Virus record (IMG/VR): IMGVR_UViG_2681812962_000001 | Span: 27,407 to 91,406 of that record | From: a virus | Lineage: Duplodnaviria > Caudoviricetes | Length of the DNA stretch: 64,000 nt | Direction: 5' to 3' (one strand) | In this document: positions 4,317 through 58,024 of the stretch, one piece after another | How the letters are laid out: every line of letters begins with the position of its first letter | Numbering within the stretch: position 1 is the stretch's first letter | Translations under genes and position numbers: made by a program | The notes under the pieces: generated by a model | What the model was told of the DNA's origin: nothing | The model's database searches: none | The model's input: only the letters and a program-made list of their open reading frames with translations

Positions 4317-5333
4317 TTAAAGTTGTACAGCTGCGTCTTCTTTAACTAGTCCGATCGCTTCACCAAATACCATAGTTACAGAAGCATCTTGAGTTAGTTT
4401 CATTTTAATACGTTCATCTTCCATGTCTGTTGCAGTAGTTTGTTTCAACCCGCCGTATTCAACAACACTGAATGGTTTCTGAGAAACACCACCGGCAAAC
4501 ATGAAGCCTTTGTTAACTGGCAGCTCTGTTTTGGAGTTAGTTTCGTCCAGGAATGGATTCACTAAAGTCACTGCAGTTGTACGGCCAATAGTAGTAGGGT
4601 TAAGTGCTGTTAGCAATTCTTTCTTAATATCATCTGTAAGCAATTTATTGAAAGTATTGTCTGAAGCTTGTTGCATAGCAAAGTGATCTACAAGCAATGC
4701 ATCGCCAATGAAGACGGGGCGGCCACCATACCGCTGTAGGGTAGATGCTACTTTGTTGTATTGAGTAAGAGTTAGGTTGGATCCAGCTGCGATGTTGGCT
4801 GCAGGGATCTTTCCAGATGCTCGAGCAGCTTCAATAAGCTTGTAGATATTATCCAAGTAAAGACGAACTTTAGCCTGAGCTACATCATTGACTAACTTGT
4901 TGAAGAACTCTACGGAATCACGTACAAGGTCAAGAGGCTCATAGTAGAAACCAGTAGATAGATGCTGTGGCTCAAGAGTTACAGTTTTACGACCTTCAAC
5001 TCGGACTAGGTCAACGCCAGAACCGGTTGCCGACCACATAACCTTCGCTTTGTTTTTCTGAGGGATCTTAAGCTGCTTGAACGTTCCAGGAGCGGCTGTA
5101 TCAAGATCTGCCATAATACCAAGGATGTCTGTAACAACTGGCTTTGCAATTTGATCAGCTTGTTCGACAACCAGGTTGTTAAACTGATGCAACATAGAGG
5201 GATCTGGATTTGTATAACCATCATTAAAGACTGCTTTGATGTAAGACTTAATGTCTGCTTTATCTGTTTCTTGCATTTGGTTTTGACGAACGCGGCTCAT
5301 AAGAGCTCGCAATTGACCAGTATTTAGTTTCAT
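4317..5333 (-). CDS. yonB: Major capsid protein (YonB-like)
   Basis: 338 aa, downstream of the scaffold/protease and decoration genes, followed by hairpin GGCAGGG-GGGAA-CCCTGCC. Confidence 0.75.
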   Translation of the reverse strand: MKLNTGQLRALMSRVRQNQMQETDKADIKSYIKAVFNDGYTNPDPSMLHQFNNLVVEQADQIAKPVVTDILGIMADLDTAAPGTFKQLKIPQKNKAKVMWSATGSGVDLVRVEGRKTVTLEPQHLSTGFYYEPLDLVRDSVEFFNKLVNDVAQAKVRLYLDNIYKLIEAARASGKIPAANIAAGSNLTLTQYNKVASTLQRYGGRPVFIGDALLVDHFAMQQASDNTFNKLLTDDIKKELLTALNPTTIGRTTAVTLVNPFLDETNSKTELPVNKGFMFAGGVSQKPFSVVEYGGLKQTTATDMEDERIKMKLTQDASVTMVFGEAIGLVKEDAAVQL

Positions 5334-5378
5334 ATGTATAACTCCTTTAAGATAAAATTAATATTTTATTTGATTTAA

Positions 5379-5945
5379 TTACTCGCCTGCTACTGGAGCG
5401 GCTGCGACAGGGGAGAGGTCCTCTACTTCAAGTCGGACAATCGGTTGGCCATGAGTGTAAGCCAAATCTTCTTCGTTTGCGACCACCAAGAATTTATTCC
5501 GGGAGCCAGCGTAATCAGCGTGTGGAGCATCAGCTTTTGACACAATAAATACTTTTTCTGCGATGTCAAAGTGGGCTACCATACCATGTCCGATAATATC
5601 TACACCATCATTTTTCTTGAATGCAGAAGTGTCGAAGCGTGTATATCCTTCTTCAAAGATCACAATACGACCGCGCTCACCCTCAGCATTATAAAAAGCG
5701 GAAAGCTCTTCATCTAAGTAACGACGTTCAGGTGCGGCAGCAAGATAGCCTTTTTTAGCTTTATCAGACAATTGCTTTGCTGTACGTTCACCCTCAGCAT
5801 TAAATCCTAGTTCGACCAATGTAAAGTTGTCTACATCCTCAAGGAAAATTGCTCCATGAGCGACAGTCTTAACATGAATAGAATTCAAGTTGCCGACTGC
5901 ATGTTTATCGTGTTTAATTAAGGCTTGTTGTGCTTGTGTAGCCAT
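5379..5945 (-). CDS. yonC: Putative capsid decoration/cement protein (YonC-like)
   Basis: 188 aa, between scaffold and capsid. Confidence 0.6.
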   Translation of the reverse strand: MATQAQQALIKHDKHAVGNLNSIHVKTVAHGAIFLEDVDNFTLVELGFNAEGERTAKQLSDKAKKGYLAAAPERRYLDEELSAFYNAEGERGRIVIFEEGYTRFDTSAFKKNDGVDIIGHGMVAHFDIAEKVFIVSKADAPHADYAGSRNKFLVVANEEDLAYTHGQPIVRLEVEDLSPVAAAPVAGE

Positions 5946-5973
5946 TTTTCATTCCTCCAATAATAATTTAATT

Positions 5974-7410
5974 TTACTCAGAAAAACGACTGAAGAAGTC
6001 ATTTTCAGCTGGAATTAGATCTTGACGAGTACTGTTTAGTGCAAGAGTAGCAGTGCTATGAGCTTCCTCAGCTTTTACAGTTACTAGTTCAACTAGCATT
6101 GAATTTAGCTTCATTGTGGCTTGAGATGCTTCTTCGCCTTCATTAGCTGATTGAGCGACAAGTGTTTGAACTTCTTCAGTCTCATATTGCTCCTTAGCAT
6201 TGAGAGCAGTGAATTTACCCTCGTAATGCTCTTTCTGACTGTTGAGCTTTTGCTCTAGCTTTTCGCTTTCGTACTTTTCTTTGTACGGTTTCAGCTCTGT
6301 GACTGCTTGGTTAAGAGATACTAGTTTTTCACTAGCGCCATTAAACTTGGCTTCAACTGAAGCTTTGTCTTCTTGAGCAGAGTTGAGCTTTGAAGTAAGC
6401 TCAGAAATCTCAGTATCCTTTTGGTTTAAAAGGTTCTGAGTTTCCTGGGGCACAACTTCTTCCCAGTTGCGCTTTAGAAAAACTTCAGTTTTAGAGTCAA
6501 AATCAATTTCTACAGCGCTCTCTGATTTTGAATAGTTAAATTTAAAATACTTGTCATATGCGTCATCTTCAGACCAACTGTAGATGTTTGCAATGAAATA
6601 GTTATCGAATGTATCGCTGATCCAGACATCTTCTTGCTCGGCCAGCTTTTCACTGAATGCTTCATAAATTTTCGAACGAATGTCATCATGTGACAGTTCA
6701 AAAGTCTTTTTGAATTTCACTTTTTCACTCTCCTTAGTATTATTTTGATTAAGTGCCTGAGCCACAAGTCTCTCAAAACCTGCAAATTCGTTAAAACTTA
6801 CAAGCTTAGAAGAATCATAGGCCGGTAGCACAATAGAATGGTTACCACGGTTCTCAGAGTTCAGAACACAGTGACCATCAAAGATGATAGGTGAGAGAAT
6901 ATGCTCCACACCATCAACAAATGAATAATTTTCATATAGAAACTCGCAGCTTGAATGTACCTCAATTCCTCTTACATGCCATTCCTTCAGTAATTCACAT
7001 GCATCAGGAAACCGAGACTTCCACAAAACTCCATCAGCTAGAAGTACTTCTTTTTCTCCATCTTCTGTTTGAATAGTTCCTTTGTATCCAGGGGTAGTGA
7101 AAGTGCCAATTGGAGTGGTATTAAGTTTTAAGCGCTGTTCGCCATTCCGGTTTGTGGAAAGGAATTCTTCATGGGATCCTAATGCATCTGTGGGAGATCC
7201 GGGTTCTTCGACCTGATAGTACCTAGTCACGATGGGTTTATTTAGAAGGGTGTTTGCTGCTTCCAATGCTACTTCCTCGGAAACAATGGCATTATTATTA
7301 CTAACTTCAAAATCAATGATCGAGAAGGTAACTGGAAGGAGAGTGGGGTCATTAGATTGCTTAATTTCATTCAAGCGGAGCTGAAGAGTTTTCTTTTTCT
7401 GCTTTTTCAA
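5974..7410 (-). CDS. yonD: Prohead protease/scaffold (YonD-like)
   Basis: 478 aa, globular N-terminus plus a long C-terminal coiled coil, after the portal. Confidence 0.7.
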   Translation of the reverse strand: MKKQKKKTLQLRLNEIKQSNDPTLLPVTFSIIDFEVSNNNAIVSEEVALEAANTLLNKPIVTRYYQVEEPGSPTDALGSHEEFLSTNRNGEQRLKLNTTPIGTFTTPGYKGTIQTEDGEKEVLLADGVLWKSRFPDACELLKEWHVRGIEVHSSCEFLYENYSFVDGVEHILSPIIFDGHCVLNSENRGNHSIVLPAYDSSKLVSFNEFAGFERLVAQALNQNNTKESEKVKFKKTFELSHDDIRSKIYEAFSEKLAEQEDVWISDTFDNYFIANIYSWSEDDAYDKYFKFNYSKSESAVEIDFDSKTEVFLKRNWEEVVPQETQNLLNQKDTEISELTSKLNSAQEDKASVEAKFNGASEKLVSLNQAVTELKPYKEKYESEKLEQKLNSQKEHYEGKFTALNAKEQYETEEVQTLVAQSANEGEEASQATMKLNSMLVELVTVKAEEAHSTATLALNSTRQDLIPAENDFFSRFSE

Positions 7411-7439: not shown

Positions 7440-8957
7440 CTACTCACTAGGAGTATTATTGGAATCAGTTGTAGCAGATTTTATAGTGTTGGGATTTTCT
7501 GAGGTTTCGCTTGAACTTCCTTTGCCAGCATTACCACTCATTACGGATGAGGTCATATAAGGCTTTATTTTCTCTTGCAGATGAAGTACATCAGTTTCAT
7601 AAAGAGTTTGTTCAAGGAAGGTATCCCAATTGACTCCTGGCAACTTGTCGACGAGATGCTTAATAGAAAAGCCTTTGTCCACCAGTTTGGTAAGCACCTC
7701 AATGATTTCTTTAGCTGAAAGTGGTTTTTCTTTGTCATAGATAATGGAGTAGTTATCTAACTGGCTATCAGGAACAATTAGGTTAATTAGCTTTTGATAG
7801 ATGTTTTCAACGTCCTCGAGCATGACTCCCAGTCTCTTATAGAAAAGATCCAACTTAGTATTTCCTGAAGCGTAGTTGTCACCAGTGCTACTAAGGAGGC
7901 CGTAGGAGGACTCAATGTCTTTATTTATATGGTCAAATTTCTTTCCATCTAAGCCATCTACCTTAACATCCGGGAATTCAATAGATGCAAAATCCGGGAT
8001 AGAAACTACATTGACGCCATCTTTGTTGTTAGCTTCTAAAGCGGACTTAACGCCACCATGAATCTTCTGTTTTATTGCTTTATTTAATTCCAGGTTACTA
8101 TATTTGCCATTATTCTTATCTGACCCAATAGTAACCACAGCTACAGCGTTTATGATCTTGTTAGCAATCGATCTCTCTACATCTTTCAACTTTTTCTTAT
8201 GTTGTACATCGAATAGGCCAGAGGTAATCCAAGATGTTCCTTTAGATTGGTTTCTCTTTAAAGCGCCAGTTGTGATGGAAAATGTACGCTCTTGAGGCAA
8301 CTCGACGTATTGTTTATCTGGATCCTTCTTAAATTCATCGTAATGCTGCTGTGTCACGTAAGGGGTGAACATCCTAAACATAAGCTTTCTCTGCTCGTCG
8401 TTAAAGGAATTAAAGAATCTCAAGTCCAGTACACAAGTCCAGTCGTTATTTTTTCGGTATAGCGGCTGAGCATATCTGGTGTCATCAAAGATATAGGCAT
8501 GCGGATTCTTTTTGTCTCCCAGCCACATGCCAACTACATTTCCAGAAGCAGCTGTTTGCTTTAAAATGTCGCGAGTCAATCTCCTATGCTGCACTTTCTT
8601 TAGTTGCTTATGTATGGCCATTTCATGCTTGTCCGATGCTTCAGTCTTTTTGAATGACTCAATACGATAATTTAGAGTGGGGAGAGATTCAATCATCTCA
8701 AAGAGCATGTGGATATCAGGAGAAGAAATGTAGAAGTATTGAGCTAGATTTTCAATTTCTTGCTGATACAGATCAGGATTGGCGAAGTACTTTTTAAGTT
8801 GTTCTGCAGTTACCTCAGTAATAATGCCGTTTGAAAAAAGGCGAGTTATGAAACCACTAGCGAAAGTACCCGCATATGTCTCCATGTCGTTTAACATCAA
8901 TTTGTATTCATCTGAATTTGTATCAATATCTCTAACTTGTATTGTGCTCACCTCCAA
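7440..8957 (-). CDS. yonE: Portal protein (YonE-like)
   Basis: About 500 aa directly after the large terminase; true start may be ATA at 8942. Confidence 0.75.
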   Translation of the reverse strand: MEVSTIQVRDIDTNSDEYKLMLNDMETYAGTFASGFITRLFSNGIITEVTAEQLKKYFANPDLYQQEIENLAQYFYISSPDIHMLFEMIESLPTLNYRIESFKKTEASDKHEMAIHKQLKKVQHRRLTRDILKQTAASGNVVGMWLGDKKNPHAYIFDDTRYAQPLYRKNNDWTCVLDLRFFNSFNDEQRKLMFRMFTPYVTQQHYDEFKKDPDKQYVELPQERTFSITTGALKRNQSKGTSWITSGLFDVQHKKKLKDVERSIANKIINAVAVVTIGSDKNNGKYSNLELNKAIKQKIHGGVKSALEANNKDGVNVVSIPDFASIEFPDVKVDGLDGKKFDHINKDIESSYGLLSSTGDNYASGNTKLDLFYKRLGVMLEDVENIYQKLINLIVPDSQLDNYSIIYDKEKPLSAKEIIEVLTKLVDKGFSIKHLVDKLPGVNWDTFLEQTLYETDVLHLQEKIKPYMTSSVMSGNAGKGSSSETSENPNTIKSATTDSNNTPSE

Positions 8958-8959
8958 TC

Positions 8960-10738
8960 TTAATAGTAAACCAGGTCATCGTCGTCGGCTGTTTCACTGT
9001 TTTTATTTAAGTCACGTTCTAGCTCAGAAGCTATGTGATTTCCATATGAAACGCTACTGTATTTATCTTTACGTTTAGAGCGAGGCTCTTTTAATTTAAC
9101 TTGTCCGGTGTCAGGGTTTGTTTCACCTTCAAGGTTGATCATTTCGTTAATCAATGCAGTTGCCTGCGCATAAGGAAGAATCAATTGACTTTGTGTTTCA
9201 GTTGGTAAGTTCTCATAACCTTTTATTGATTTAAGAACTTCCTTACCATCATTTTCATGCATTAGAAGCTTTAATTTACCGCGTTTCAAAGCGTCTTTCA
9301 TTGTAATAGCGATCTTACTGTTCAAAGAAGCATTACCTTTTATACTATAAATCACTTTTGGAGCAGAAGTGTATACACACCTAGCTTGCATCTTTTCATC
9401 ATTAATACAGTTTAAGGGCTCATATTCTTTAGCTCGTTCTTTATCAAATAAAGGTTGAGAGAGAAGATCAAAGATGGCTAAACCGACGTTTTGTGTATCG
9501 AGAACTATGTAGTCACAATTAAAGTCTTCGTAAAGCTGTCTAATTCTAGTGGACTGTGTTTGAGTATGGCCTCCAACTATGCTTTCCATGTAAACAACAT
9601 GTCTTTCATAGGAACGACCTTTGCTTACAGGTACTAATTTAAGCACTGAATACACACTGGCATCATTGTCTGTGCCTTCCATAGTTGCAATATCACAGCT
9701 AAGTAAGCGTATCTCTCCAGGCGCTTTAGGATCTGGTTTAAAGGAAGAATCTCTTAGTAACTGGTAATAATCCAGGGGATAAAGAGGGGAAGAGAGCTTT
9801 CTGTTTTTCTCCAAATCTTCAAACTTAAAGTAGGCCTTTTCAGATTCTCCAAACCAAAGAGCTTCCATCTCCATTGACCAACCAACTTCGTCAAAGTCGT
9901 CCTCAGACATCTCATCCTTTACTTGATCTTCCATTAACAATCGTTCTTTTATAGCCAATTGGTAGGGAAGGCCACACACAAAGTAGCTAGAGCCATCCAT
10001 CATTGATTTGTAATAGGTAAGGAAACGGTTATATGACCAGTGCACCTTGTACCAACAGGAGGATAAATATATCTCTTTGTTGCGCTCTGTGAGGTGGGCA
10101 TACTCGTCTTTTTGCAGATATCTAGGGGAGCGGGGAGCTGTTAGAAACTTTCGGAGTACTTTAGAGATGATCTGAAAATCAACCATTCTAAACTCATCAA
10201 CAATTAGCAAATTGGCTCGCTTAGAACGCGCTCCATCGTTTGAAGCTACAATTTTGATCCAGCTACCATTGTGGAATTCTACTTTGGGATCATTCGAGGA
10301 GGTCTTTAAATCGGATATTTCTCGAGCAAGGTTTTCAGAGTTCTTTCGCATATCATCTATTTTTTCAATGACTTCTCGTGCTTGACCCTTCGTACCAGAT
10401 GCAATTATGATCTTTGTCTCGGGGAATAATATGGCTCGAACACAGCAAAAGATAGACGTCAAAAACGTTTTACCCTGACCACGACTTGCAAGATACATGA
10501 AATAATGATTGTGCATCATCATGTATAATAAAATACACTGAAACAACTTAAGATTAATCCCTAAATACTCACTAACAAATCTCTGAGGATTACTTCTATA
10601 GAAAGATCCCCATACAGCAATGCCTTCCATTAAACGCTCGGACTTGGTTTTCTTGTTGAAATTACGGCCTTTATTGAATATATTTATGCCTTTATAGGCC
10701 TTGTTTCTATCTACTTGGAAGTTTTGATGAGCGCTCAT
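8960..10738 (-). CDS. yonF: Terminase large subunit (YonF-like)
   Basis: Walker A ASRGQGKT, Walker B LIVDE, RNase H-like acidic motifs SCDIA, VLDTQ and KDKYS. Confidence 0.9.
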
Positions 10739-42475: not shown

Positions 42476-44008
42476 ATGAGTCTGTTTGATAAGCGAAGTG
42501 CTTTTCAAGTGCTAGGCAACCTATCCCAAAAGCCTTCTTTACTTGATGATAAGCAATACAGATTAAATAAAGATGACTTCAATGCAGCAGACGAATCTGC
42601 CTTCTATATGATTATTTTTGGAGCTATACATAATCTGTACAATGAGGGGCTAGAAGAGGTTGATGCAATTGCAATAGATAATTTTTTGAGTAGTTATGAG
42701 AAGCAATATAAAGTTTTTAATGAAAACAACGGAGCTCAATACATTCAAGAGGCCATTAATCAGTCTCACTTACGTAATTTTGAATATTATTACAAACGAT
42801 TAAAGAAATTTAGTCTACTGAGGCACTATGTTGATCAAGGCATAGATGTTAGTGATATCTATGATGATTCAATTGTTGATCCTAGAGAATCAGAAGTACT
42901 GATGGCCGAATTTGATAAGAAGTCTGTTGCGGATATAATCAGCGATATTGACCGGCGAATCTTCCAGGTAACTAAAAAATTTGTTGATTCTACAGATTCA
43001 GAGAGGATGCATGCTTCAGAAGGAGTTAAGGAACTGCTAAATAAATTTAAAGAAACTCCTGATTACGGAATTTCTTTGATTGGAAACTACCAAAATACTA
43101 TCTTTCGTGGTGGTAAATTAAAGACATTGAGTCTTAGATCAGCACCCTCTAACTTAGGTAAAACACGTCTTGCTTTAGGTGAAGCTGCAGATATGGCAAT
43201 TGATGAAATGTACGATTGGAAGAAGAAGGAGTGGTTGAAACGTGGCAATACAGAAAACGTCTGCTTCATAACCACCGAGAACGAGGCTGATGAGTTGCAA
43301 CCTACGCTTCTTGCTTATATCTCTGGTGTAGCTGAAACAAAGATTAAAGATGGTGATACTACAGAAGAGGAAGATGAGATCCTACAAAAAGCTGTAGAAG
43401 TCTTAGAAAGAACTAATTTTCAAATTGCTTACATTCCTGACTTCGATATGCAGCAGATTGAAACAGAGATCAAAGATCAGATACTCGAGAATAATATACA
43501 GTATATCTATTTTGACTACATACATATTAGCCTTCAAATACTCACAGAGCTTGCTGAGGCATCCAACGGCATGAAGATGCGTGAAGACATGGTCCTCTTT
43601 ATGTTTATGAACAAACTCGATCAAATTAGAAAGAAATATAATGTCTTCATTAAGACAGCAACGCAGGTAAATGGTGAATGGAAAAACGTACAGAATGCTG
43701 ATTCAACACTACTTCGAGGATCAAAAGCTCTAGCCGATAAAGCAACTTCTGGGATGATAGCTCTATCTCCAACAAACAAGGATCTAGAAGCTATACAACC
43801 TATACTCAAGAATGGTTTTTATCCTGGAGCTCCTAATGTTGTTTACCACATTTACAAGAATAGACATACAAAGTTCAAGGACATGAAACTATGGCTGTAT
43901 GTGGACTATGACACTATGCGTCAGCACGAACTATTCTTAACAACAAATAACTATGAGATGGTAGACATATCTCCAACTAACATACAGGCCATGGCAACTG
44001 CAGAATAG
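42476..44008 (+). CDS. yorI: DnaB-like replicative helicase (YorI)
   Basis: SAPSNLGKTR, FITTE, YFDYI, TATQVN, LRGSKALADK. Confidence 0.85.
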   Translation: MSLFDKRSAFQVLGNLSQKPSLLDDKQYRLNKDDFNAADESAFYMIIFGAIHNLYNEGLEEVDAIAIDNFLSSYEKQYKVFNENNGAQYIQEAINQSHLRNFEYYYKRLKKFSLLRHYVDQGIDVSDIYDDSIVDPRESEVLMAEFDKKSVADIISDIDRRIFQVTKKFVDSTDSERMHASEGVKELLNKFKETPDYGISLIGNYQNTIFRGGKLKTLSLRSAPSNLGKTRLALGEAADMAIDEMYDWKKKEWLKRGNTENVCFITTENEADELQPTLLAYISGVAETKIKDGDTTEEEDEILQKAVEVLERTNFQIAYIPDFDMQQIETEIKDQILENNIQYIYFDYIHISLQILTELAEASNGMKMREDMVLFMFMNKLDQIRKKYNVFIKTATQVNGEWKNVQNADSTLLRGSKALADKATSGMIALSPTNKDLEAIQPILKNGFYPGAPNVVYHIYKNRHTKFKDMKLWLYVDYDTMRQHELFLTTNNYEMVDISPTNIQAMATAE

Positions 44009-44010
44009 GG

Positions 44011-45147
44011 GTGAGACCTCTGAGGATTGATAAGGATTTTGCGGACTCTCTAAAGGAAAAAATGACCGAAGAAGACATACACAAGATTTTGCTAGATTTA
44101 GGGAGCAAAGAACCGGAGCAGGACAAAAATGGTGACTTAAAGTTCACTACAGTTTGTCATGGGGGAACCAAACATAAACTTTACTACTATCACGAATCCA
44201 GACAATTCCATTGTTATACAGATTGTAGCGATAACCTTGATATCTATGAAGTTGTAATTAGGACAAAAAAAGAACAAGGAGTAGACGTTACTTTTCCTAA
44301 GGCCGTTGAGTATGTATCTAGAGTAACGGGTAAGACTCGTGGCTTTGGGTACACAGGCTTGAAAAGTAATAAGGACTTGATTAATGATTGGGATTTTATT
44401 AGCAAATTCTCGCGTAAAGCTAAAAGTGACAGAACTCTCCCTAGCTATAATGAGAATGTTTTAGATGTATTTATGTCACTTCCACATGAAAGCTGGCTAG
44501 AAGAAGGCATAAGCTACGAGACGATGGAGAAATACGAGATTGGATATTACTTTCGAGAGAAAGAAGAGGGCATAGTAATTCCTCATAGAGATATCAACGG
44601 TCGACTAATTGGTATACGCCGGAGGAGCATGATACAGGAGCAAGTGGATGCTGGATACAAATACATGCCTCTAACAGTAGGGAATACAATGTACAACCAT
44701 TTAGTAACTGCTAATTTGTACGGCTTAAACCATACAGCAGAAGCAGTTAAGCGTTTAAGAAAACTAATGATATTTGAATCTGAGAAGTCTGTGCTTAAAT
44801 GCCAAGATTTTTATGGAGAATTGAACTTTACAACAGCTATTTGCTCGAGCAATATATCTGATTTTCATCGAGACATTGCTACATCTCTAGGTATTGAGGA
44901 AGTTTTTATTGCGCTAGACAAAATGGGATATGAGGAAGATGAAGAGAAATTTGAAAAGAAAGAGCAAGAGTATCAGGAACGGATCCTAAAGTTCGCCAAG
45001 AAGTTTGCACCCTATTGCAGAGTCTATGTATTGTGGGATGACGAAGGGCTCCTTGACTGGAAAGACAGTCCGGCAGATCGTGGAAAAGAAGTATTAGAAG
45101 AAATGATGAAGAATAAGACAGAGATTACTATGGAGGGAGCAATTTAA
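44011..45147 (+). CDS. yorJ: DNA primase (YorJ)
   Basis: Zn motif CH...CYTDC, Toprim FESEKS...ALD, KDSPAD. Confidence 0.8.
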   Translation: MRPLRIDKDFADSLKEKMTEEDIHKILLDLGSKEPEQDKNGDLKFTTVCHGGTKHKLYYYHESRQFHCYTDCSDNLDIYEVVIRTKKEQGVDVTFPKAVEYVSRVTGKTRGFGYTGLKSNKDLINDWDFISKFSRKAKSDRTLPSYNENVLDVFMSLPHESWLEEGISYETMEKYEIGYYFREKEEGIVIPHRDINGRLIGIRRRSMIQEQVDAGYKYMPLTVGNTMYNHLVTANLYGLNHTAEAVKRLRKLMIFESEKSVLKCQDFYGELNFTTAICSSNISDFHRDIATSLGIEEVFIALDKMGYEEDEEKFEKKEQEYQERILKFAKKFAPYCRVYVLWDDEGLLDWKDSPADRGKEVLEEMMKNKTEITMEGAI

Positions 45148-46862
45148 TGCAGTATAAGCTTATTGGAGATAATAACATTAAAAAGCCTTTAGAAACGGTT
45201 CTTAGCAATAGAGGGGTAAAAAACTTGGAAGGTTTGATAGATGCCAATGAGAATAATGAACACCATTATTCGAAATTAAAGAACATGTCTAGGGCAGTTG
45301 CTTTATTGCTAAAACACGCTAAAGAGAAGAACAAAATTTTTATTCAAGCTGATAGTGATGCCGATGGTCTTACAAGTACTGCAATTCTCTTAAACTACCT
45401 TAAGCGAGCTTTTCCAAAGCTGGAGATTCAGTATAGGCTTCAGGATGGGAAAGAGCATGGAGTACTAGTGGAAACTATACCTGAGGACGTAAAATTAGTT
45501 ATTATACCTGACGCAGGATCTAGCCAGTACGAAGAGCATAAGCAACTGTATGACAAGGGTATAGATGTATTAGTTTTAGATCACCATGAAACTGAAAAAG
45601 AGTCCCAGCATGCGGTAGTTGTAAATAATCAGCTATCACCGAATTATCCAAACAAGGCTCTTACAGGGGCGGGAATAGTCTATAAATTCACACAGGCTTT
45701 GGATGCGGAATTAGGCAAGAACCATGCAGAGCGCTACTTAGATTTAGTTGCAATTGGTAATATTGCAGATATGGCTGATTCGAGAGACCTTGAAACAAGG
45801 TTTTACATGAAAAAAGGACTCAGTAAAATACGCAATCCATTAGTTAAGGTATTGTTTAAAAAGGTAGAGTTTAGCACCGGCGGTGAAAAGACCATAACCA
45901 ATGTACAGTTCTATGTTAACCCACTTATCAACGGAGCAATTCGAATTGGAACTATGGAAGAAAAGGATCAGCTCATGAGAGCTTTACTGGAGTCTAAGGA
46001 GACAGTACCTTATAAGAAGCGCGGCAGCAACGTTGAAGAAATGGTTCCGATTACTCAAAACACTGCACGGCTTCTTACTAATCTGAAAGCAAAGCAAAAG
46101 CGCATAGTCGATAAAGCTACTAATGAAATACAAGAGCGGATAATTGAAAAAGGCTTGCTTAACAACAAGATTTTGATCATCTACATAAATGATATTCTGG
46201 ATAAAAAACTGACTGGATTAGTGGCCAATCGGCTAGTAAAACTACATAAAAGACCTGTTTTATTAGCTAGATTGATGGATAATGACACTCTAGGAGGATC
46301 GGTAAGGGGCTATGAAAAAGGATACATAAAAGATATTAAGAAGTTTCTTACGGACACAGGCTTGTTTAATTACTGTGAGGGGCATGCCAACGCACATGGA
46401 TTCTCGATTGAGATAGACAATTTAGTTAAAGTAAATGAAATAGCCAATGAGCTTCTAAAAGATGTGGAAATTGACAGCGGGGAAATTGAGGTTGATTTCG
46501 AAATTCCAGCTGATAAAATAAAGCCATTGTTTATCAAAGATTTACATAGTTATAGAGAGCACTGGGGACAGAATGTGGAAGCTCCTTTATTAGCTGTTAC
46601 TGACTTGGAAGTTAATAAGGATGAGATTTATCTTAATGGTAAGCAGAAGAATGTTATTAAGTTTACTGTTAATGATGTGTCCTACGTCAAATTCTTTTCT
46701 AATGAAGAAGAGTACGAGGAGCTAGTAAGCCATGGTGATCACTTGATTCTAACTATCATTGGAAAGCCAGATGTCAATGAATACAATGGAGTCAAAACAG
46801 CACAAGTTCTAATTGAGGATTTTGAAGTTAAGGCAGCAAAGAAGAAAAGATACATTTTCTAG
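45147..46862 (+). CDS. yorK: RecJ-like DHH-family ssDNA exonuclease (YorK)
   Basis: DSDADG, PDAG, LDHH, IADM, GSVRG, GHANAHG. Confidence 0.9.
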   Translation: MQYKLIGDNNIKKPLETVLSNRGVKNLEGLIDANENNEHHYSKLKNMSRAVALLLKHAKEKNKIFIQADSDADGLTSTAILLNYLKRAFPKLEIQYRLQDGKEHGVLVETIPEDVKLVIIPDAGSSQYEEHKQLYDKGIDVLVLDHHETEKESQHAVVVNNQLSPNYPNKALTGAGIVYKFTQALDAELGKNHAERYLDLVAIGNIADMADSRDLETRFYMKKGLSKIRNPLVKVLFKKVEFSTGGEKTITNVQFYVNPLINGAIRIGTMEEKDQLMRALLESKETVPYKKRGSNVEEMVPITQNTARLLTNLKAKQKRIVDKATNEIQERIIEKGLLNNKILIIYINDILDKKLTGLVANRLVKLHKRPVLLARLMDNDTLGGSVRGYEKGYIKDIKKFLTDTGLFNYCEGHANAHGFSIEIDNLVKVNEIANELLKDVEIDSGEIEVDFEIPADKIKPLFIKDLHSYREHWGQNVEAPLLAVTDLEVNKDEIYLNGKQKNVIKFTVNDVSYVKFFSNEEEYEELVSHGDHLILTIIGKPDVNEYNGVKTAQVLIEDFEVKAAKKKRYIF

Positions 46863-46914: not shown

Positions 46915-49900
46915 TTGCAAGAACAACTAATAGGCTGCCACTGCCATTCTGATAAGAGTAATATACGACTTCTCGATTCGACTAACAGAGTCAGTGATCT
47001 GCTAAAAACAGCAGTGCAATTAGGATATAAGGGATTGGCTATTACGGATCATGAGGTATTGTCAGCACATGTAGAAGCTATCCAGACAGCAAGAGAAATG
47101 AAGGCACAAGGCAAGATGGATGCTGACTTTAAATTAATCCTAGGTAACGAAGCTTATCTTGTTGATTCCTTGGAAGAAGTGAGAGATAACTATCAGTCAG
47201 GTGTAACTAAGTTCCCACACTTTATCATGCTAGCAAAAGATGCAGTTGGGCATGAACAGTTGAGAATTCTTAGCAGCCGTGCATGGAGCAATTCTTTCTT
47301 TACAGGAACTATGGAAAGAGTGCCAACCGTAAAAGCTGATGTTGAAGAGATAGTTCGTGGTAATCCAGGGCATCTCATTGCTACGAGCGCGTGCTTGGGA
47401 AGCGAGCTTAATATTTACATATTGGCCTTAAATCAGGCTGAGCAAGATGAGGATGAAACCTTAGTAAATGAAATAAAAATTAAATTGAACAACCATATCA
47501 ATTGGTGTGTTGATGTTTTCGGTAAGGATAACTATTTCTTTGAGTTACAGCCAGCTTTAAGCGAAGAACAGATCATTGTTAATAAGAAACTATTGGAGCT
47601 TTCACTAGCCTACGATATCAAGAAAATCGTAGCTACTGATGCGCATTTCCTTCGTCCAGAGGATAGGGTTGTACATGAAGCATATCTTAACTCAAAGGAT
47701 GGAGATAGAGAAGTAGCAAGTTTTTATGAAGCATGTTTTTTACATACTACTGACGAGATCTACCAGCGGATGGATTACATAGCGAAGGAAGAAGTTTCGG
47801 AGTTAATTGCTAACACAATGCTCATCGGAGATATGATCGAAGAATATACGATAGAGCATGAGCCCATTATACCGAAGATGGAACTGCCGGACTTTGAAGT
47901 AAGGCATCTATTTGAGCCAGCGTATGGCAAGTATGTATACATTGACAAAATGGCTCATTCAGAAGAAGAGCAAGATAGGTATCTTATAAAGCTACTAGAA
48001 GACGGTTTTGACGATAAGCTTAGAAAGCCTAATCTAAGCAAGGAAGAGTTTCATATTATGTTAAACCGTTTGAACACAGAGCTTGGCGATCTATGGGAGA
48101 TTGGGGCTAAACTTAAGCAAAGTATGCCTTCCTACTACGTTACCATTTTAGAAATTATTAATATCATTTGGGACGATGAATGTGGTGGCAATAGTTTAGT
48201 TGGAGCAGCAAGGGGTTCTGCTGCAGGGTTCTTGGTTAATTATCTCTTAGATATTACTCAAGTGAATCCAATCCAATATGACCTTCCTGAATGGCGTCAC
48301 ATTCATAAATCACGGCCTGACTTACCAGATATTGATATTGATACAGAGGGAGCTAAACGGCAACAAATCCTCAAGGCACTTAAAAATCGTTTTGGGAATG
48401 ATCGAGTACTGCAGATTGCTACATTTGGCACGGAGGGCTCCAAGTCTGCATTGCAAACTGCGTGCAGAGGCTTGGGTATTGATAGTGATATAGCTCAATA
48501 TCTAAGTGGAATGATTCCATTTGAGCGAGGATCAAATTGGTCTTTGAAAGATTGTTTTGAAGGTAATGAGGAGAAAGGTAGAAAACCTATAAAAGACTTT
48601 ATTCGAGAAGTCGAAAGCTATCCTAACCTAAGAGAGACTGCCTTAAAGATTGAAGGTCTAGTTAATAAGAGATCTAGTCATGCTGCAGGGGTAATTATCT
48701 TCAATGATGTATTCACAAAAACAAACGCTATGATGAAGACGCCAAAGGGTGCTGCTATAACTCAGTTTAATATGGGAGATACAGAAGCCATGGGGTCAGT
48801 AAAGTTTGACTTGTTGACCATTGAGGCGCTCGACAAGATAAGAGTTACTCTTGATCAATTGCTAGAACATGAAGAGATTGAATGGCAAGGTAACTTGAGG
48901 GCTACTTATAACAAGTATATTCATCCCGACGTATTAGAATATGATGATCCAAAGCTATGGGAGATGGTCGGTAACGGCGAAGTAATGGATCTATTCCAGT
49001 TTTCAACTCAAGTTGGCCATCAAACGGCCATCAAAGTAAAACCTAAGAATGTCCTGGAGGCAGCTGTAGCAAACTCTCTCATGCGCCTTATGGCTGATGA
49101 AGGGGAACAGCCGGTTGATATATATGTGAAGTTTAAAGACGATATCTCCTTGTGGTATAAGCAGATGAAGGACTATGGGCTAAGTAACACCGATATCACA
49201 GTCATGGAGAAGTATCTAAAAGAGATATACGGAGTAGCCGATACACAAGAAGTTGTTATGCAGATGGTAATGGACGCGAAGATTGCCGGTTTTAGCATCA
49301 AAGAATCTAACCAGTTAAGAAAAGCCATAGCTAAGAAAAAGGAAAAGGTTCTTAAAGAAGTTAAAGAGCTCTATTACTCGAAAGGAAAGAAGCTTGGAGC
49401 TTCAGACGAATTACTAAATTACGTATGGGATGTACAGTTCAAGCGACAGTTTGGATATTCGTTCTCCTTGCTGCATACTTTAGCTTATTCAATTATCGCG
49501 CTTCAGGAGCTTAACCTTAATTACAATTATAATCCGATCTATTGGAATACAGCTTGTCTTACTGTCAATAGCGGCGGGGTTGAAGATGAGAATGATTCGG
49601 GTAATACTGCTTCCACAAATTATGGAAAAGTTGCTGCAGCAATAGGAAACATACGTCAAAGAGGAGTAAAAGTTGATCTACCTGACATTAACAAAGCCAA
49701 GTTTGGGTTTACTCCAGATGTTAAGAATAATTCGATTGTCTTTGGATTAAAAGGGATGCATGGTATAGGGGATCAAGTAGTTCATGATATCATATCTAAC
49801 CGGCCGTATAATTCCTTTGATGACGTACTAGAAAAACTGTATAAAACTAGTATTTTAAAGAAAGGTCACATTATACAGTTGATCAAGGGGGGATGCTTTG

Positions 49901-50835
49901 ACGGATTTGGAAAACGTGAAGACATTATGAAACAATTTATTACTCTGATCTCTGAGCCTAAAACGAAGCTTACCATGCAAAATATTAATATGATGATTGA
50001 ACGCGAATTACTGCCAGAGAAGTTTAATTTAAATGTGCGGTTCTACCGATTCAAAACTTATATTAGTAAGAGAGTACATAAGACAATTGCAAAACCCAAG
50101 GACAGATTATTCCTATTGGATGATATGTCATCTCAATTTTTGAACACTCACTTTGATGACGAGTGTATAGTTGATATGCATGAAGGAGAATTGGTTGTCT
50201 CAGAGAAAGCATTTAAAAAACAGTACGATAAGCTCATGGAACCAGTTAAACAATGGCTGGAAAGCCCTGAAGCCCTAGCCCTCCTGAACATTGATTTACT
50301 TAACTCAGAATGGGAAAAGTACGCATCGGGTTCCTTAAGTAGATGGGAAATGGATTCTTTGTCTTATTATTATCATGAGCATGAATTGTCTGGTGTGAAT
50401 AGAAGTAAATATAGCATTGAAAACTTCTTTGATCTACCTAAAGAACCAATTAAAGGTAGACCTTATACGTGGCGAGGCAAGCAACTATATGAATATGAAA
50501 TAACTCGAATCATTGGAACGGTGCTAGACCGAGACAAAACTAAACATACTGTCACACTTTTAACACCTGATGGAGTTGTAACTGTGAAAATGTATGGTGG
50601 AGCATTTGGACACTATAATCGCCAGATTTCCGACAAGGTTGGAGACAAGAAGCAAGTGATAGAAAAATCCTGGTTCACAAGAGGTAATATGTTGCTCTTT
50701 TCTGGTTTTAGAAGAGGCAATAACTTCATACCAAAAGTCTACAAGCAGTCTATATTCGCACATACTGTGGCCAAGGTGGACTCCCTCGACCTAGATGGCA
50801 ACTTGAGTATTACAACTGAAAGGGTTCAGATTTAG
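46915..50835 (+). CDS. dnaE: DNA polymerase III alpha subunit, DnaE-type (YorL)
   Basis: PHP HCHS/TDHE, RGSAAG, PDIDID, KFDLL, FGYSFSLLH; no intein evident. Confidence 0.95.
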   Translation: MQEQLIGCHCHSDKSNIRLLDSTNRVSDLLKTAVQLGYKGLAITDHEVLSAHVEAIQTAREMKAQGKMDADFKLILGNEAYLVDSLEEVRDNYQSGVTKFPHFIMLAKDAVGHEQLRILSSRAWSNSFFTGTMERVPTVKADVEEIVRGNPGHLIATSACLGSELNIYILALNQAEQDEDETLVNEIKIKLNNHINWCVDVFGKDNYFFELQPALSEEQIIVNKKLLELSLAYDIKKIVATDAHFLRPEDRVVHEAYLNSKDGDREVASFYEACFLHTTDEIYQRMDYIAKEEVSELIANTMLIGDMIEEYTIEHEPIIPKMELPDFEVRHLFEPAYGKYVYIDKMAHSEEEQDRYLIKLLEDGFDDKLRKPNLSKEEFHIMLNRLNTELGDLWEIGAKLKQSMPSYYVTILEIINIIWDDECGGNSLVGAARGSAAGFLVNYLLDITQVNPIQYDLPEWRHIHKSRPDLPDIDIDTEGAKRQQILKALKNRFGNDRVLQIATFGTEGSKSALQTACRGLGIDSDIAQYLSGMIPFERGSNWSLKDCFEGNEEKGRKPIKDFIREVESYPNLRETALKIEGLVNKRSSHAAGVIIFNDVFTKTNAMMKTPKGAAITQFNMGDTEAMGSVKFDLLTIEALDKIRVTLDQLLEHEEIEWQGNLRATYNKYIHPDVLEYDDPKLWEMVGNGEVMDLFQFSTQVGHQTAIKVKPKNVLEAAVANSLMRLMADEGEQPVDIYVKFKDDISLWYKQMKDYGLSNTDITVMEKYLKEIYGVADTQEVVMQMVMDAKIAGFSIKESNQLRKAIAKKKEKVLKEVKELYYSKGKKLGASDELLNYVWDVQFKRQFGYSFSLLHTLAYSIIALQELNLNYNYNPIYWNTACLTVNSGGVEDENDSGNTASTNYGKVAAAIGNIRQRGVKVDLPDINKAKFGFTPDVKNNSIVFGLKGMHGIGDQVVHDIISNRPYNSFDDVLEKLYKTSILKKGHIIQLIKGGCFDGFGKREDIMKQFITLISEPKTKLTMQNINMMIERELLPEKFNLNVRFYRFKTYISKRVHKTIAKPKDRLFLLDDMSSQFLNTHFDDECIVDMHEGELVVSEKAFKKQYDKLMEPVKQWLESPEALALLNIDLLNSEWEKYASGSLSRWEMDSLSYYYHEHELSGVNRSKYSIENFFDLPKEPIKGRPYTWRGKQLYEYEITRIIGTVLDRDKTKHTVTLLTPDGVVTVKMYGGAFGHYNRQISDKVGDKKQVIEKSWFTRGNMLLFSGFRRGNNFIPKVYKQSIFAHTVAKVDSLDLDGNLSITTERVQI

Positions 50836-53798: not shown

Positions 53799-56090
53799 TT
53801 GACGGTAATTACTAAAAATAGCGGCAAAAGAAAACTCGAATTTGATCAAGATAGGCTCTCTGCTTTTATTGAAAAGCTAGCTGCAGATTATCCAGAACTC
53901 CAAACAGAAAGCTTGCAGCGAAAGGTTGCTGGATATGTGACTAGCAGAGACGAGATGAAAGCTTCAGAAATAACTGCTGAACTGACTAGAACTTCTTTGG
54001 AACGTATCCAGAAAGAAGAGCCTAATTGGACATATGTAACTGCAGCTGTGCATCTAAAAAAACTCTATAAGTCAGCAAGTAAGAACAGAGTATACGAAGC
54101 TTCAAAGAGGTATGGAGAATTCTATTCTTTGATTACTACGTTAACTAACATTGGTATTTACAACCCTATGTTACTAGAGACGTATTCTAAAGAACAAATA
54201 AATGAACTAGAATCAGAAATTGACGCTGATAGAGATAAGCTCTTTACTTATATCGGGCTGAGAACACTTGCCGATAGATATTTAGCGACTGATCATAAGG
54301 GCAATGTTTACGAATTGCCTCAAGAGCGATTTATGATTATTGCCATGACAGTTATGAGTAAAGAACCAAAAAGTATGCGTATGCATTACGTTAAAGAGGC
54401 ATACTGGGCACTAAGTAATTTATATATGACAGTAGCCACACCGACTTTATCAAACGCTGGAAAGAGCTATGGCCAACTATCTAGTTGTTTCATTGATACA
54501 GTGGATGACAGCCTACAAGGAATTTTTGATAGCAATACAGACATTGCTAACTTGTCTAAGAACGGTGGGGGCATTGGTGTCTACCTAGGCAAAATTCGTA
54601 GCAGAGGCAGCGCAATTAAAGGATTTGAAGGAGCTTCGTCTGGTGTGCTTCCGTGGATGAAGCAGCTAAACAATACAGCAGTTAGCGTCGATCAGCTAGG
54701 TCAGCGAAAAGGTGCTATAGCGACTTATCTCGATATTTGGCACAAGGATATTTATCCTTTCCTCGATGCTAAACTGAACAATGGAGACGAACGCCAAAGA
54801 ACACACGATATCTTTACTGGAGTTTGCATCCCAGACATCTTTATGGAGCAGGTACAAAAGCGAGGAGACTGGTATTTATTTGACCCTCACGAAGTTCGCC
54901 GGGTAATGGGTTATTCTCTAGAGGATTTCTACGATGAAAAACGTGGGGAGGGTTCATTCCGAGAGAAGTATGATGAATGTGTAAGCTGCAATGATTTAAG
55001 CAAGGTTAAAGTTTCTGCTATTAATGTCATGAAACGAATTTTGAAAAGTCAACTAGAAACAGGCACACCATTTATGTTCTATCGTGATGAAGTTAACCGT
55101 CAGAATGCCAATAAGCATGCAGGTATGATCTATTCCAGTAACCTTTGTACAGAGATCATGCAGAATCAAAGCGCTACAGTTATGACGGAACAGACTACAA
55201 AAGACGGTAAGATTATCATTACTAAGGATCCTGGTGACTTCGTTGTATGTAACCTTTCATCCATTTCTCTGGCTAAGGCTGTTATAGAAGGAGTTTTAGA
55301 GCGACTTATTCCAATACAGGTACGTATGTTAGATAACGTGATTGATCTAAATACAATACCTGTGCTACAGGCTCAGTTTACTAACCAAAAGTATCGTGCT
55401 ATTGGGCTTGGAACATTTGGCTGGCATCACTTGCTAGCACTGAAACAGATTGAATGGGAAAGTGATAAAGCTGTTGCATATGCAGATAAACTTTATGAAA
55501 AAATTGCTTACCTGACAATTCAATCAAGCATGAAGCTGGCAGAAGAAAAAGGAGCTTATCCTATCTTTGAAGGATCTGAGTGGTCTGATGGCACTTATTT
55601 TGAAAGAAAAGGTTACACCAGCGCTGTATCTGAGCTAGATTGGAAAGAGCTTCAAGCTCAAGTGAAGCAATTCGGTATTAGAAATGCTTATCTTATGGCT
55701 GTGGCTCCTAACTCATCAACAGCTTTAATTGCTGGAAGCTCAGCTACAATAGATCCAGTTTTCCGTAATGAGTATTCCGAGGAAAAGAAAGATTTCAAGA
55801 TACCTGTTACAGCACCTGGGATCACAAAGGAAAACTTTGAGAAGGTGTACAAAAAGACAGCCTATCTAATTGATCAACAATGGAGCATTAAGCAGAATAC
55901 AGCTCGTCAAAAGCATATTGACCAAGCATCATCGTTTAACCTATACGTTCCGAATACTATTAAAGCAACGGATATGTTGGATTTACATATTGCAGTATGG
56001 GACTCAGGCATTAAAACTTCTTATTACTTTAGATCAACTAGTAGTAATGATGATATTAAAGAAGAAGTATGGGAGGAAAACTTGGATTGA
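53799..56090 (+). CDS. nrdA: Class I ribonucleotide reductase alpha subunit with an ATP-cone-like N-terminus, lacking the C-terminal CxxC
   Basis: VATPTLSNAG, QLSSCF, SSNLCTEI, VVCNLSS, VAPNSS, TSYYFRS; the tail DDIKEEVWEENLD has no Cys. Confidence 0.92.
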   Translation: MTVITKNSGKRKLEFDQDRLSAFIEKLAADYPELQTESLQRKVAGYVTSRDEMKASEITAELTRTSLERIQKEEPNWTYVTAAVHLKKLYKSASKNRVYEASKRYGEFYSLITTLTNIGIYNPMLLETYSKEQINELESEIDADRDKLFTYIGLRTLADRYLATDHKGNVYELPQERFMIIAMTVMSKEPKSMRMHYVKEAYWALSNLYMTVATPTLSNAGKSYGQLSSCFIDTVDDSLQGIFDSNTDIANLSKNGGGIGVYLGKIRSRGSAIKGFEGASSGVLPWMKQLNNTAVSVDQLGQRKGAIATYLDIWHKDIYPFLDAKLNNGDERQRTHDIFTGVCIPDIFMEQVQKRGDWYLFDPHEVRRVMGYSLEDFYDEKRGEGSFREKYDECVSCNDLSKVKVSAINVMKRILKSQLETGTPFMFYRDEVNRQNANKHAGMIYSSNLCTEIMQNQSATVMTEQTTKDGKIIITKDPGDFVVCNLSSISLAKAVIEGVLERLIPIQVRMLDNVIDLNTIPVLQAQFTNQKYRAIGLGTFGWHHLLALKQIEWESDKAVAYADKLYEKIAYLTIQSSMKLAEEKGAYPIFEGSEWSDGTYFERKGYTSAVSELDWKELQAQVKQFGIRNAYLMAVAPNSSTALIAGSSATIDPVFRNEYSEEKKDFKIPVTAPGITKENFEKVYKKTAYLIDQQWSIKQNTARQKHIDQASSFNLYVPNTIKATDMLDLHIAVWDSGIKTSYYFRSTSSNDDIKEEVWEENLD

Positions 56091-56299
56091 GACATCTATT
56101 TGAATACAAACTTAAGGGTGAAGAAGAAACAGACGAACAGGCTATTACCACGGAAACTGAAGAAGAAGCGAAGGCTCTAATTAAAGAAAGAATTGCTGAC
56201 TTTAACTTTATTGAAGAATCTGAGATTGAATGGGTCAAGCACATTGGCTCATCAAACCCTAAAGGGGATACATATTACGAATGTGAAGGGTGCACTTGA
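56087..56299 (+). CDS. Small acidic protein ending in ECEGCT, the RNR-alpha C-terminal redox motif (stand-alone or reached by -1 frameshift)
   Basis: TTG overlapping the nrdA TGA, SD GGGAGG at 56071; alternative ATG at 56069. Confidence 0.7.
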   Translation: MRHLFEYKLKGEEETDEQAITTETEEEAKALIKERIADFNFIEESEIEWVKHIGSSNPKGDTYYECEGCT

Positions 56300-56700
56300 T
56301 GCGCCCCTTCATTTATCTTGTCTATAGCTCAATTAGTGGAAATACGAAAGACGTAGCTCAAATCATAAAAGGGAAAATGGCTAGTCTTTTTGATGTGATT
56401 GAGTACCGCATCAGCGACTTCGAAGTCCCCCCGACTATAGAGCAAAATGATGTACTTATCATCGGATCCTATACATGGGGGTCAGGAGAAACACCTGCAG
56501 AAGTTAAGGACTTTGTTGCGGAACTAGGTATCAAACCAGATACCGTCTTCGCTTTTGGTACTGGAGATACTCAGTTTGGTGGAGATGAGATGTTTTGCAT
56601 GGCAGCTGACAAGCTTACCAAGTTCTACAATTCACCGCTTAAGTCGCTAAAGGTAGAGCAATCTCCTAGAGGGTCACAAGAAAGAGAAATCGAAGAATAG
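56299..56700 (+). CDS. Flavodoxin (RNR-associated, NrdI role), possibly truncated by a premature TAG
   Basis: YSSISGNT, GSYTWGSG, AFGTGD, FCMAAD. Confidence 0.85.
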   Translation: MRPFIYLVYSSISGNTKDVAQIIKGKMASLFDVIEYRISDFEVPPTIEQNDVLIIGSYTWGSGETPAEVKDFVAELGIKPDTVFAFGTGDTQFGGDEMFCMAADKLTKFYNSPLKSLKVEQSPRGSQEREIEE

Positions 56701-57775: not shown

Positions 57776-58024
57776 ATGAAACTATTAAAACTAGAACAGC
57801 CAGATTGCAGAGGTTGTGTAGAAGTTGGAAACATTCTTAACAACTCAGAAGTAGAATACGAAGCTATTGATGTAGTGGAAAATCCAGAAGTAGCTGATCG
57901 CTATGGTGTTATGGGGCTGCCTTTAACCTTGTTGGTCGATGATAAAGGCAAGACATTACAGCGCGCCGTTGGAGTAGATCGGCCGGCAATTGTAGAGATG
58001 ATTGAAAAGATAAAAGGAGCTTAA
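57776..58024 (+). CDS. Thioredoxin/NrdH-like redoxin (YosR-like)
   Basis: CRGC, VMGLP. Confidence 0.85.
   Translation: MKLLKLEQPDCRGCVEVGNILNNSEVEYEAIDVVENPEVADRYGVMGLPLTLLVDDKGKTLQRAVGVDRPAIVEMIEKIKGA

Follow-up and report, generated by a model that had tools for sequence, protein, structure and literature searches.

How does a class I ribonucleotide reductase (RNR) complete its cycle when its catalytic alpha subunit ends before the cysteine pair that normally re-reduces the active site? The question is raised by a stretch of 64,000 nucleotides of Caudoviricetes DNA (the window; positions 27,407 to 91,406 of IMG/VR record IMGVR_UViG_2681812962_000001), in which the gene of such an alpha subunit is followed directly by a small gene of 70 codons. 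Of the two halves of the RNR cycle, re-reduction of the active site is the less conserved one, and in class I it is ascribed to the alpha subunit's own tail. The active-site disulfide of the class I enzyme is described as being reduced by a C-terminal Cys pair of alpha (C695/C698 in Bacillus subtilis), which thioredoxin then re-reduces (PMC11903788). Our analysis points to the 70-residue protein as a separately encoded, trans-acting redox tail for a class I alpha without a C-terminal dithiol of its own; judged mainly from sequence comparison, we give this reading a probability of about 0.65.

The alpha gene was identified with Pfam (PF02867, 520 bits, 7e-156; PF00317, 83 bits; both above the curated cut-offs) and with NF006665, which scored 1300 bits against a cut-off of 1057. 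The NF006665 alignment covered profile positions 8–752 of 761, so the profile expects nine C-terminal residues beyond the end of the window alpha. Residues C230, N448, C450, E452, C484, Y742, and Y743 were invariant in an alignment of 14 alpha sequences, and we take their roles to be those of the homologous residues in E. coli and B. subtilis numbering. The protein ends in ...KTSYYFRSTSSNDDIKEEVWEENLD; there is no Cys after the YY pair (Y743), and the CxxC (or Cx4C) redox tail of class I alpha subunits is missing. A first-pass annotation of this DNA had described an alpha that keeps its catalytic residues and the YY pair but has no terminal Cys, and both the open reading frame (ORF) and the alignment bear this out. 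By its residues, then, the window alpha is catalytically complete, but tail-less. At its N-terminus, an extension of about 60 residues (VITKNSGKRKLEFDQDRL..., 53799–53980) looks ATP-cone-like by eye; Pfam gave no ATP-cone in the window alpha at E ≤ 0.01, and an ATP-cone is mentioned in the record of one phage relative.

The small ORF is offset from the alpha frame by 56069 − 53799 = 2270 (remainder 2). Its TTG start (56087–56089) overlaps the alpha stop TGA (56088–56090) as TTGA, and its stop (56297–56299) overlaps the ATG of a flavodoxin gene at 56299 as TGATG. The TTG stands where the homologues have an ATG (MQRYLFEYK...). The protein ends in ...GDTYYECEGCT, and the CEGC dithiol motif lies at codons 56282–56293, one residue before the C-terminus. 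All the elements that had been listed for this ORF at first reading, namely the −1 frame, a length of about 70 amino acids (aa), the Shine–Dalgarno sequence GGGAGG, the TTGA overlap, and the end ...TYYECEGCT, were recovered.

A structural model made with AlphaFold2 from 20 sequences had a mean predicted local distance difference test (pLDDT) value of 85.7. Residues 1–50 reached 93–95, with strands at 2–9, 15–21, and 47–56 and a helix at 25–39, and segments 61–65 and 68–70 fell below 50. The predicted domain of about 56 residues has no counterpart in tailed alpha genes, in agreement with the earlier impression that the extra residues form a small domain and not a normal tail. The C-E-G-C motif is invariant in all 21 aligned members of the family and always stands 1–2 residues from the end. 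In position and pattern it matches the alpha tails of relatives, ...[ED]CE[SW]C.S ([ED]CESCSS, EECEWCSS).

Database searches gave the small protein no name. Pfam, NCBIfam, and PHROGs held no significant family match; fold searches of the model against the PDB and BFVD returned nothing at E ≤ 0.001, and the best E of a sequence profile search of the PDB was not below 0.38. Fold matches in the ESM Atlas all stayed below 0.9, and DUF3906, at a template modeling score of 0.66, is a lead only. A profile search of 5.8 billion proteins yielded 41 clusters, all labeled hypothetical or uncharacterized except for one automatic DUF2922 label. That label, carried by one UniRef record, was rejected, as Pfam scans of 21 members show no such match. 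A thioredoxin-fold redoxin (NrdH, Trx, Grx) was rejected as well: the model is beta-beta-alpha-beta with the CxxC in a disordered tail, and neither Pfam nor NCBIfam gave a redoxin match. A word search with the single sequence found the window's own protein and nothing else, and the cultured-phage collection had no match to the junction DNA or to either of the two subfamilies of the small protein. No fused forms (proteins of more than 133 aa containing the small protein) were found, which is weak evidence.

The window corresponds to contig 3, 330906–394905, of a 3.39-Mb bacterial genome, and its RNR module sits in the nucleotide-metabolism operon of a large prophage. The host genus is Terribacillus, as the chromosomal small protein is identical, letter for letter, to named Terribacillus records. 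In this host genome, which is 99.98% complete, PF02867 matches two genes only, and both lack the tail; a search for a class III gene (PF13597) found none. The second alpha, on contig 7, is 80.6% identical to the window alpha, ends in ...YYLRSTSN, and has a hairpin and T-run directly 3' of it. A flavodoxin–beta pair is located on contig 6, and contig 4 carries a stand-alone, monocistronic paralogue of the small gene (70 codons, MQRYLFEYK...HYYECEGCT) with a promoter-like site (10/12) and a terminator with a 16-bp stem. Its product shares 45% identity with the window small protein by alignment and 47% by tblastn. The host RNR genes are spread over these three loci, with no single operon.

The same was seen throughout the genus. 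The chromosomal alpha is tail-less, ending in ...YYLRSTSN, in all 12 Terribacillus genomes, and the inspected flank shows the hairpin and T-run in 11 of the 12. A small gene with the same length and C-terminal motif is present in 12 of 12, at about 190–250 kb from alpha in the only three genomes with both genes on one contig. The median ratio of nonsynonymous to synonymous substitution rates (dN/dS) of the small gene is 0.05 over 66 pairs (dS up to 0.83), which indicates strong purifying selection. Because of this conservation in length and motif and the low dN/dS, the small-gene feature is, on comparative grounds, far beyond chance. These comparisons show a real and conserved gene, translationally coupled, as judged from its overlaps, between alpha and flavodoxin. 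By the same comparisons, the host's only RNR is built likewise, and the tail-less design is not a phage speciality. Since the whole clade nearest to the window is tail-less by a clean stop, the missing tail is, on this evidence, a lineage trait and not a lesion.

Two further elements combine a tail-less alpha with a small gene. One, on contig 12 of G127, a genome of the same genus, has the order alpha (...YYMRSTSN), small gene, flavodoxin, beta. Its small gene (69 aa) has its own Shine–Dalgarno sequence, and the TAA directly before the ATG makes an alpha–small fusion impossible there. The other, L090, is an unrelated viral contig of 204 kb whose alpha lacks the tail (...YYVRSRALTV) and is followed by beta, one ORF, and, three genes from alpha, a small protein of the second subfamily that ends in ...NYIACEGCAS; thymidylate synthase-like and dihydrofolate reductase-like genes lie downstream of it. 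A maximum-likelihood tree built from 21 alpha sequences grouped those of the Terribacillus chromosomes, the window, and the G127 element in one clade (96/98), sister to the tailed alpha of Aquibacillus, and placed L090 far outside. Because of that position of L090, the tree gives two independent tail losses. By this reconstruction there were at least two losses of the alpha tail, and in both cases the small gene is found in the same genome or module. The association is drawn from related, non-independent genomes, in which the independent events number two.

Tail loss is otherwise rare in the sequences compared. The cultured-phage relatives of alpha that were inspected are tailed in seven cases out of seven (...EEC.xC.S). 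In a family-level sample, 191 of the 201 genomes match a tailed 70-residue query; among the matches listed, all rows from outside the genus reach residue 69–70, and the genus rows stop at 60. A further 51 lower-scoring rows lie outside the listed matches, and each of 15 spot-checked genomes from lower-scoring genera has an alpha match to residue 68–70. One genome in this sample (G144) has an additional match that stops at residue 60, within a longer frame of 893 aa.

The family of the small protein is also sparse, with members in 10 of the 401 genomes and 6 of the 133 genera of an order-level sample. Its second subfamily (71–75 aa, ending in ...GDNY(I/V)ACEGCAS) occurs on viral and metagenome contigs, and the records include Paenibacillus amylolyticus, P. 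taichungensis, and an Aerococcus metagenome-assembled genome. G127 has a third copy of the small gene, in a prophage, which adjoins an ORF of 147 aa that is RusA-like by eye; this 3.2-kb locus has no alpha.

If the small protein serves as a redox tail in trans, its folded domain would dock on alpha and substitute for the covalent link, and the flexible YYECEGCT peptide would enter the active site after each turnover to reduce the active-site disulfide. A thioredoxin-fold protein (the CRGC protein encoded at 57776 or a host thioredoxin) would then restore the oxidized CEGC to its dithiol form; the inferred electron path thus runs from redoxin to small protein to alpha. In the host, the same scheme would serve the only RNR there is, whose genes lie at three unlinked loci, and the prophage would bring a cognate set of its own. 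In the split class II RNR, such a tail would have its analogue in NrdJb. Two observations favor this reading: the tail-less alpha genes are the only RNR found in the host genome, and a confidently predicted domain is followed by a disordered tail with CE-x-C plus one or two residues, as in normal alpha tails. Supply in trans was one of two branches left by the first-pass annotation, and it now has comparative support from the separate gene, its purifying selection, its unlinked position in the host, and the G127 and L090 elements.

Prophage and host proteins differ in how far they have diverged. Identity is 81% for alpha, 90% for beta, 57% for flavodoxin, and 47% for the small protein. The values for alpha and beta imply a recent exchange of the RNR set between host and phage. 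Of the four proteins they share, the small protein has diverged most, which, as a speculation, would fit a cognate, co-adapting pair. The prophage alpha also ends in an acidic, Cys-free extension (SNDDIKEEVWEENLD) that is not present in the host alpha or the alpha of the G127 element; it might help to form the interface with the cognate small protein of the prophage.

Several results weigh against a redox tail in trans. All 13 non-Terribacillus genomes with the small gene have a normally tailed alpha (14 of 14 genes); they comprise Aquibacillus, Cytobacillus gottheilii, Priestia endophytica, Halobacillus seohaensis, Halalkalibacter suaedae, Bacillus mesophilum, two Salibacterium, two Domibacillus, and three others, and a class II enzyme, where seen among them, has its own zinc-finger tail. 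It follows that the family is active even beside a tailed alpha or is dispensable there. The small gene is present, with no match to alpha, in three complete proviruses (45–56 kb) and two fragments, and some Salibacterium copies lie directly behind a phage amidase, in a moron-like position. No conserved nrd neighbor accompanies the small gene outside mobile elements, and a comparison across genera found no conserved neighbors of the stand-alone gene. On the question whether homologues of the small protein always sit behind a Cys-less alpha, these 13 genomes and the phages without alpha give a negative answer. Finally, direct reduction by a redoxin or a low-molecular-weight thiol is conceivable for an alpha without a tail, a route suggested for cysteine-less C-termini of class II enzymes (10.1101/2022.04.23.489257).

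Because of the co-occurrence with tailed alpha, the alpha-free phages, and the domain without counterpart, the family looks like an independent, often mobile protein with an alpha-like tail, and not like a piece cut off alpha. In the genomes compared, Terribacillus, its elements, and L090 are the only cases in which alpha has lost the tail it once had.

The same distribution would also suit a tail mimic that modulates alpha or the thioredoxin system (as an inhibitor, a decoy, or a redoxin-recruiting adaptor), with alpha being re-reduced directly by a redoxin or a low-molecular-weight thiol. The family stands alongside a tailed alpha in all 13 other genomes, and temperate phages carry the small gene alone, partly moron-like behind lysis genes. 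The thioredoxin-docking aromatic triad of B. subtilis NrdE (W623 F624 F625; PMC11903788), which corresponds to window alpha residues of about 676–684 (near 55824–55850), can be read in the same direction. Its Trp is replaced in four of the five tail-less alpha rows (DRYY, DRFY, AKIY, SPYY), with the window row ambiguous owing to a 2-residue insertion; it is kept in eight of eight tailed bacterial rows and lost in four of seven tailed phage rows. The replaced Trp may mark a changed reductant interface. A modulator, however, leaves unexplained why the small gene is core (12/12) exactly in the tail-less genus and sporadic elsewhere (10/401), and why it is found in the same module in both independent tail losses; an invariant CEGC at the alpha-tail distance from the C-terminus fits a redox-active arm. 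We therefore consider a modulator unlikely.

A less probable alternative, to which we attach little weight, is that the product is a small CxxC protein unrelated to RNR, such as a Cys4-dimerizing metal binder or a peptide precursor, and that its adjacency to nrd genes is coincidental. No nrd gene was found within 4 kb at 24 of the 26 named genome loci of the small gene, and no family or fold match gives the protein any function. Coincidence accounts poorly for the three elements (the window, G127 contig 12, and L090) that hold the small gene inside an RNR or nucleotide-metabolism module, for the translational coupling on both sides in the window, for a tail built on the pattern of the alpha tails, or for the presence of the protein throughout the tail-less genus.

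The remaining explanation is that a single gene underlies alpha and the small ORF, its two parts being joined by a programmed −1 frameshift or separated by a single-base deletion that arose in sequencing, assembly, or mutation. From 56060 onward the small frame is open, and at 56090 the alpha frame ends; these boundaries agree with the earlier finding that 56060–56087 is the sole place for a shift. This overlap of 28 nt holds an A4 run (GGAAAAC). No X XXY YYZ slippery heptamer occurs in the overlap, and no stimulatory structure follows it (the 87 nt downstream fold with −4.2 kcal/mol, z +1.56, and 189 of 200 shuffles were at least as good). Nor is the overlap conserved in relatives, which are unable to fuse the two frames, so the frameshift branch of the first-pass annotation is not sustained. 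A single continuous ORF in relatives had been named as a sign of an indel or an assembly error; the more distant relatives do have one, with a tail of 10–15 residues, but the nearest clade is tail-less by a clean stop. As for the reads across the junction, whose verification had been advised, a contig re-assembled from the probable source run at a depth of 356 has no differences over 55700–56700, and two contigs of 151 nt from a different study cross 55952–56106 without a gap; two further sequencing runs cover parts of the stretch only. A group I intron or intein between the YY pair and the tail was also rejected: Rfam at E values up to 10 gave two chance-level matches, and the insert is coding-like and conserved as protein. 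With homologues that start exactly at the TTG position with an ATG of their own, a TAA before that ATG in G127, genes that lie apart in the chromosome and in L090, and a domain of about 56 residues that tailed alpha genes do not have, a frameshift or artefact is largely refuted already and is the least probable explanation by far.

A redox tail in trans has its closest likeness in the split class II enzyme NrdJa/NrdJb of P. aeruginosa, in which the second polypeptide is described as mediating reductive dithiol exchange, and which has been called a unique split RNR in a free-living organism (PMC4520616). There too, the catalytic chain has no C-terminal Cys and a separate chain carries the pair (PMC4520616, PMC9669993); both chains are needed, and the organism is a free-living bacterium. 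For NrdJa, dithiothreitol (DTT) is reported to make the second chain unnecessary. The likeness is one of description, as that system is a B12-dependent class II enzyme and the present one is class I. Unlike NrdJb, the small protein has a 56-residue domain without a counterpart in fused alpha and without a Pfam match, the host genes are unlinked, and the family occurs beside intact alpha as well. In a split of the NrdJa/NrdJb type, the second chain would be expected to be homologous to the C-terminal domains of unsplit relatives; here the relatives have only a tail of 10–15 residues, and no such homology was found.

With tailed class I alpha subunits (B. subtilis NrdE, PMC11903788; phage Eldridge; Listeria phage LMSP-25), the window alpha shares the barrel, the catalytic residues, and the YY pair. 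Their tail of 10–15 residues is covalent, whereas here the chain stops after ...RSTS(N) or after a Cys-free acidic extension, and it is the end of the small protein, ECEGCT, that copies the pattern and end distance of the tailed forms (EECESCHS, EECEWCSS). A phage class I alpha function on two polypeptides is known from the genes-in-pieces NrdA of Aeromonas phage Aeh1 (PMC3045599), and phage RNR genes split by introns, inteins, or homing endonuclease genes likewise give two polypeptides (PMC3653736). In those cases, as described, mobile elements interrupt the catalytic core and the pieces stem from one ancestral gene; in the present case there is no mobile element, intron, or intein, and only the redox tail has been removed. 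With NrdH, thioredoxin, and glutaredoxin, the small protein would share the place of a small CxxC protein in the RNR electron path. Those proteins have a thioredoxin fold with the CxxC at a helix N-terminus and reduce the alpha tail, whereas the small protein is folded differently, bears its CxxC on a disordered C-terminal peptide, and would stand in for that tail. A glutaredoxin domain fused to NrdB in Facklamia ignava (PMC6187632) is a precedent for varied attachment of the reductant.

The split RNRs met in the literature are of three kinds: class II NrdJa/NrdJb (PMC4520616) and nrdJ-a/b of phage phiYS40; alpha genes interrupted by introns, inteins, or homing endonucleases; and the genes-in-pieces NrdA of Aeh1. 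In the literature covered, mostly main texts outside subscription journals, we found no class I enzyme with its redox tail as a separate small protein, and nothing on the RNR of Terribacillus. Within that literature, a separately encoded redox subunit has so far been found only for class II, and class I is split only by mobile elements in the catalytic core. If our reading is right, a detachable arm serves the only RNR of a free-living genus of Bacillota and of its phages. Such an enzyme would offer a natural system for tail docking and electron delivery in trans, and the 41 clusters of this unnamed family would have a function. Temperate phages with the small gene but no alpha could then be seen as carrying an auxiliary gene whose product acts on the RNR of the host. 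More tentatively, and with clearly less confidence than in the tail itself, one may think of a portable redox arm: a family that is mobile and mostly carried by phages, and that supplies class I RNRs of host or phage with a substitute dithiol tail to drive or hijack dNTP synthesis. Such an arm could have made the alpha subunit's own tail dispensable, so that it was lost at least twice and left a genus with an obligately two-protein catalytic subunit at unlinked loci.

Table 1. Features of the RNR module, in window coordinates
Feature	Position	Strand	Evidence or remark
Class I RNR alpha, catalytic subunit, 763 aa	53799..56090	+	PF02867 + PF00317, NF006665
Acidic Cys-free C-terminal extension of prophage alpha, 15 residues, SNDDIKEEVWEENLD	56043–56087	+	
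Stretch open in both alpha and small-protein frames	56060..56087	+	Sole such stretch, 28 nt
Shine–Dalgarno sequence GGGAGG	56071..56076	+	10 nt upstream of small-gene TTG
Small gene, 70 codons, TTG start	56087–56299	+	−1 frame relative to alpha
Small protein residues 1–56, predicted folded beta-beta-alpha-beta domain, putative docking module	56087..56254	+	AlphaFold2
Small protein residues 57–70 and stop, predicted disordered tail SNPKGDTYYECEGCT	56255..56299	+	AlphaFold2
RNR-associated flavodoxin	56299..56700	+	NF006747, Pfam Flavodoxin_1; alternative GTG start 56290
Class I RNR beta, radical-generating subunit, 345 aa	56718..57755	+	PF00268, 7e-71
Thioredoxin-fold candidate, 82 aa, CRGC motif	57776..58024	+	Weak matches

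The genes around alpha and the small gene (Table 1) place the operon within class I. The flavodoxin scored 119.6 bits with NF006747 (cut-off 104) and 124.7 bits with TIGR01754 flav_RNR (below its 163.8), and merely 27 bits with the NrdI model TIGR00333 (cut-off 74.65). Beta reached 411 bits with NF007184 (cut-off 310) and 131 bits with the class Ib NrdF model TIGR04171 (cut-off 355), and the window alpha had 391 bits with the class Ib NrdE model TIGR04170, below the cut-off of 750. Because TIGR04170, TIGR04171, and TIGR00333 all score below their cut-offs, the operon is, by these profiles, another class I subtype with an RNR-associated flavodoxin and not a canonical class Ib NrdEF-NrdI. The product of the last gene matched Thioredoxin_3 (21.7 bits), Glutaredoxin (21.2 bits), and an NCBIfam thioredoxin model (26.8 against 96.8), all below cut-off, and is a possible reductant of the small protein's dithiol. 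A search for a homologue of this prophage redoxin in the host gave only one weak match.

Elsewhere in the prophage, PHROG matches identified a DNA polymerase, a RecJ-like exonuclease, a DnaB-like helicase, a primase, a terminase, and a portal protein (example coordinates of prophage genes: 46915–50835, 45147–46862, 42476–45147, and 7440–10738). The DNA polymerase has 1306 aa, and the window also encodes a Sak4-like annealing protein and a LysM endolysin. In Bacillus phage Eldridge, beta is annotated in two pieces around a homing-endonuclease-like gene with a NUMOD4 motif (4773–6583 of the locus retrieved), an ordinary mobile-element split that contrasts with the arrangement in the window.

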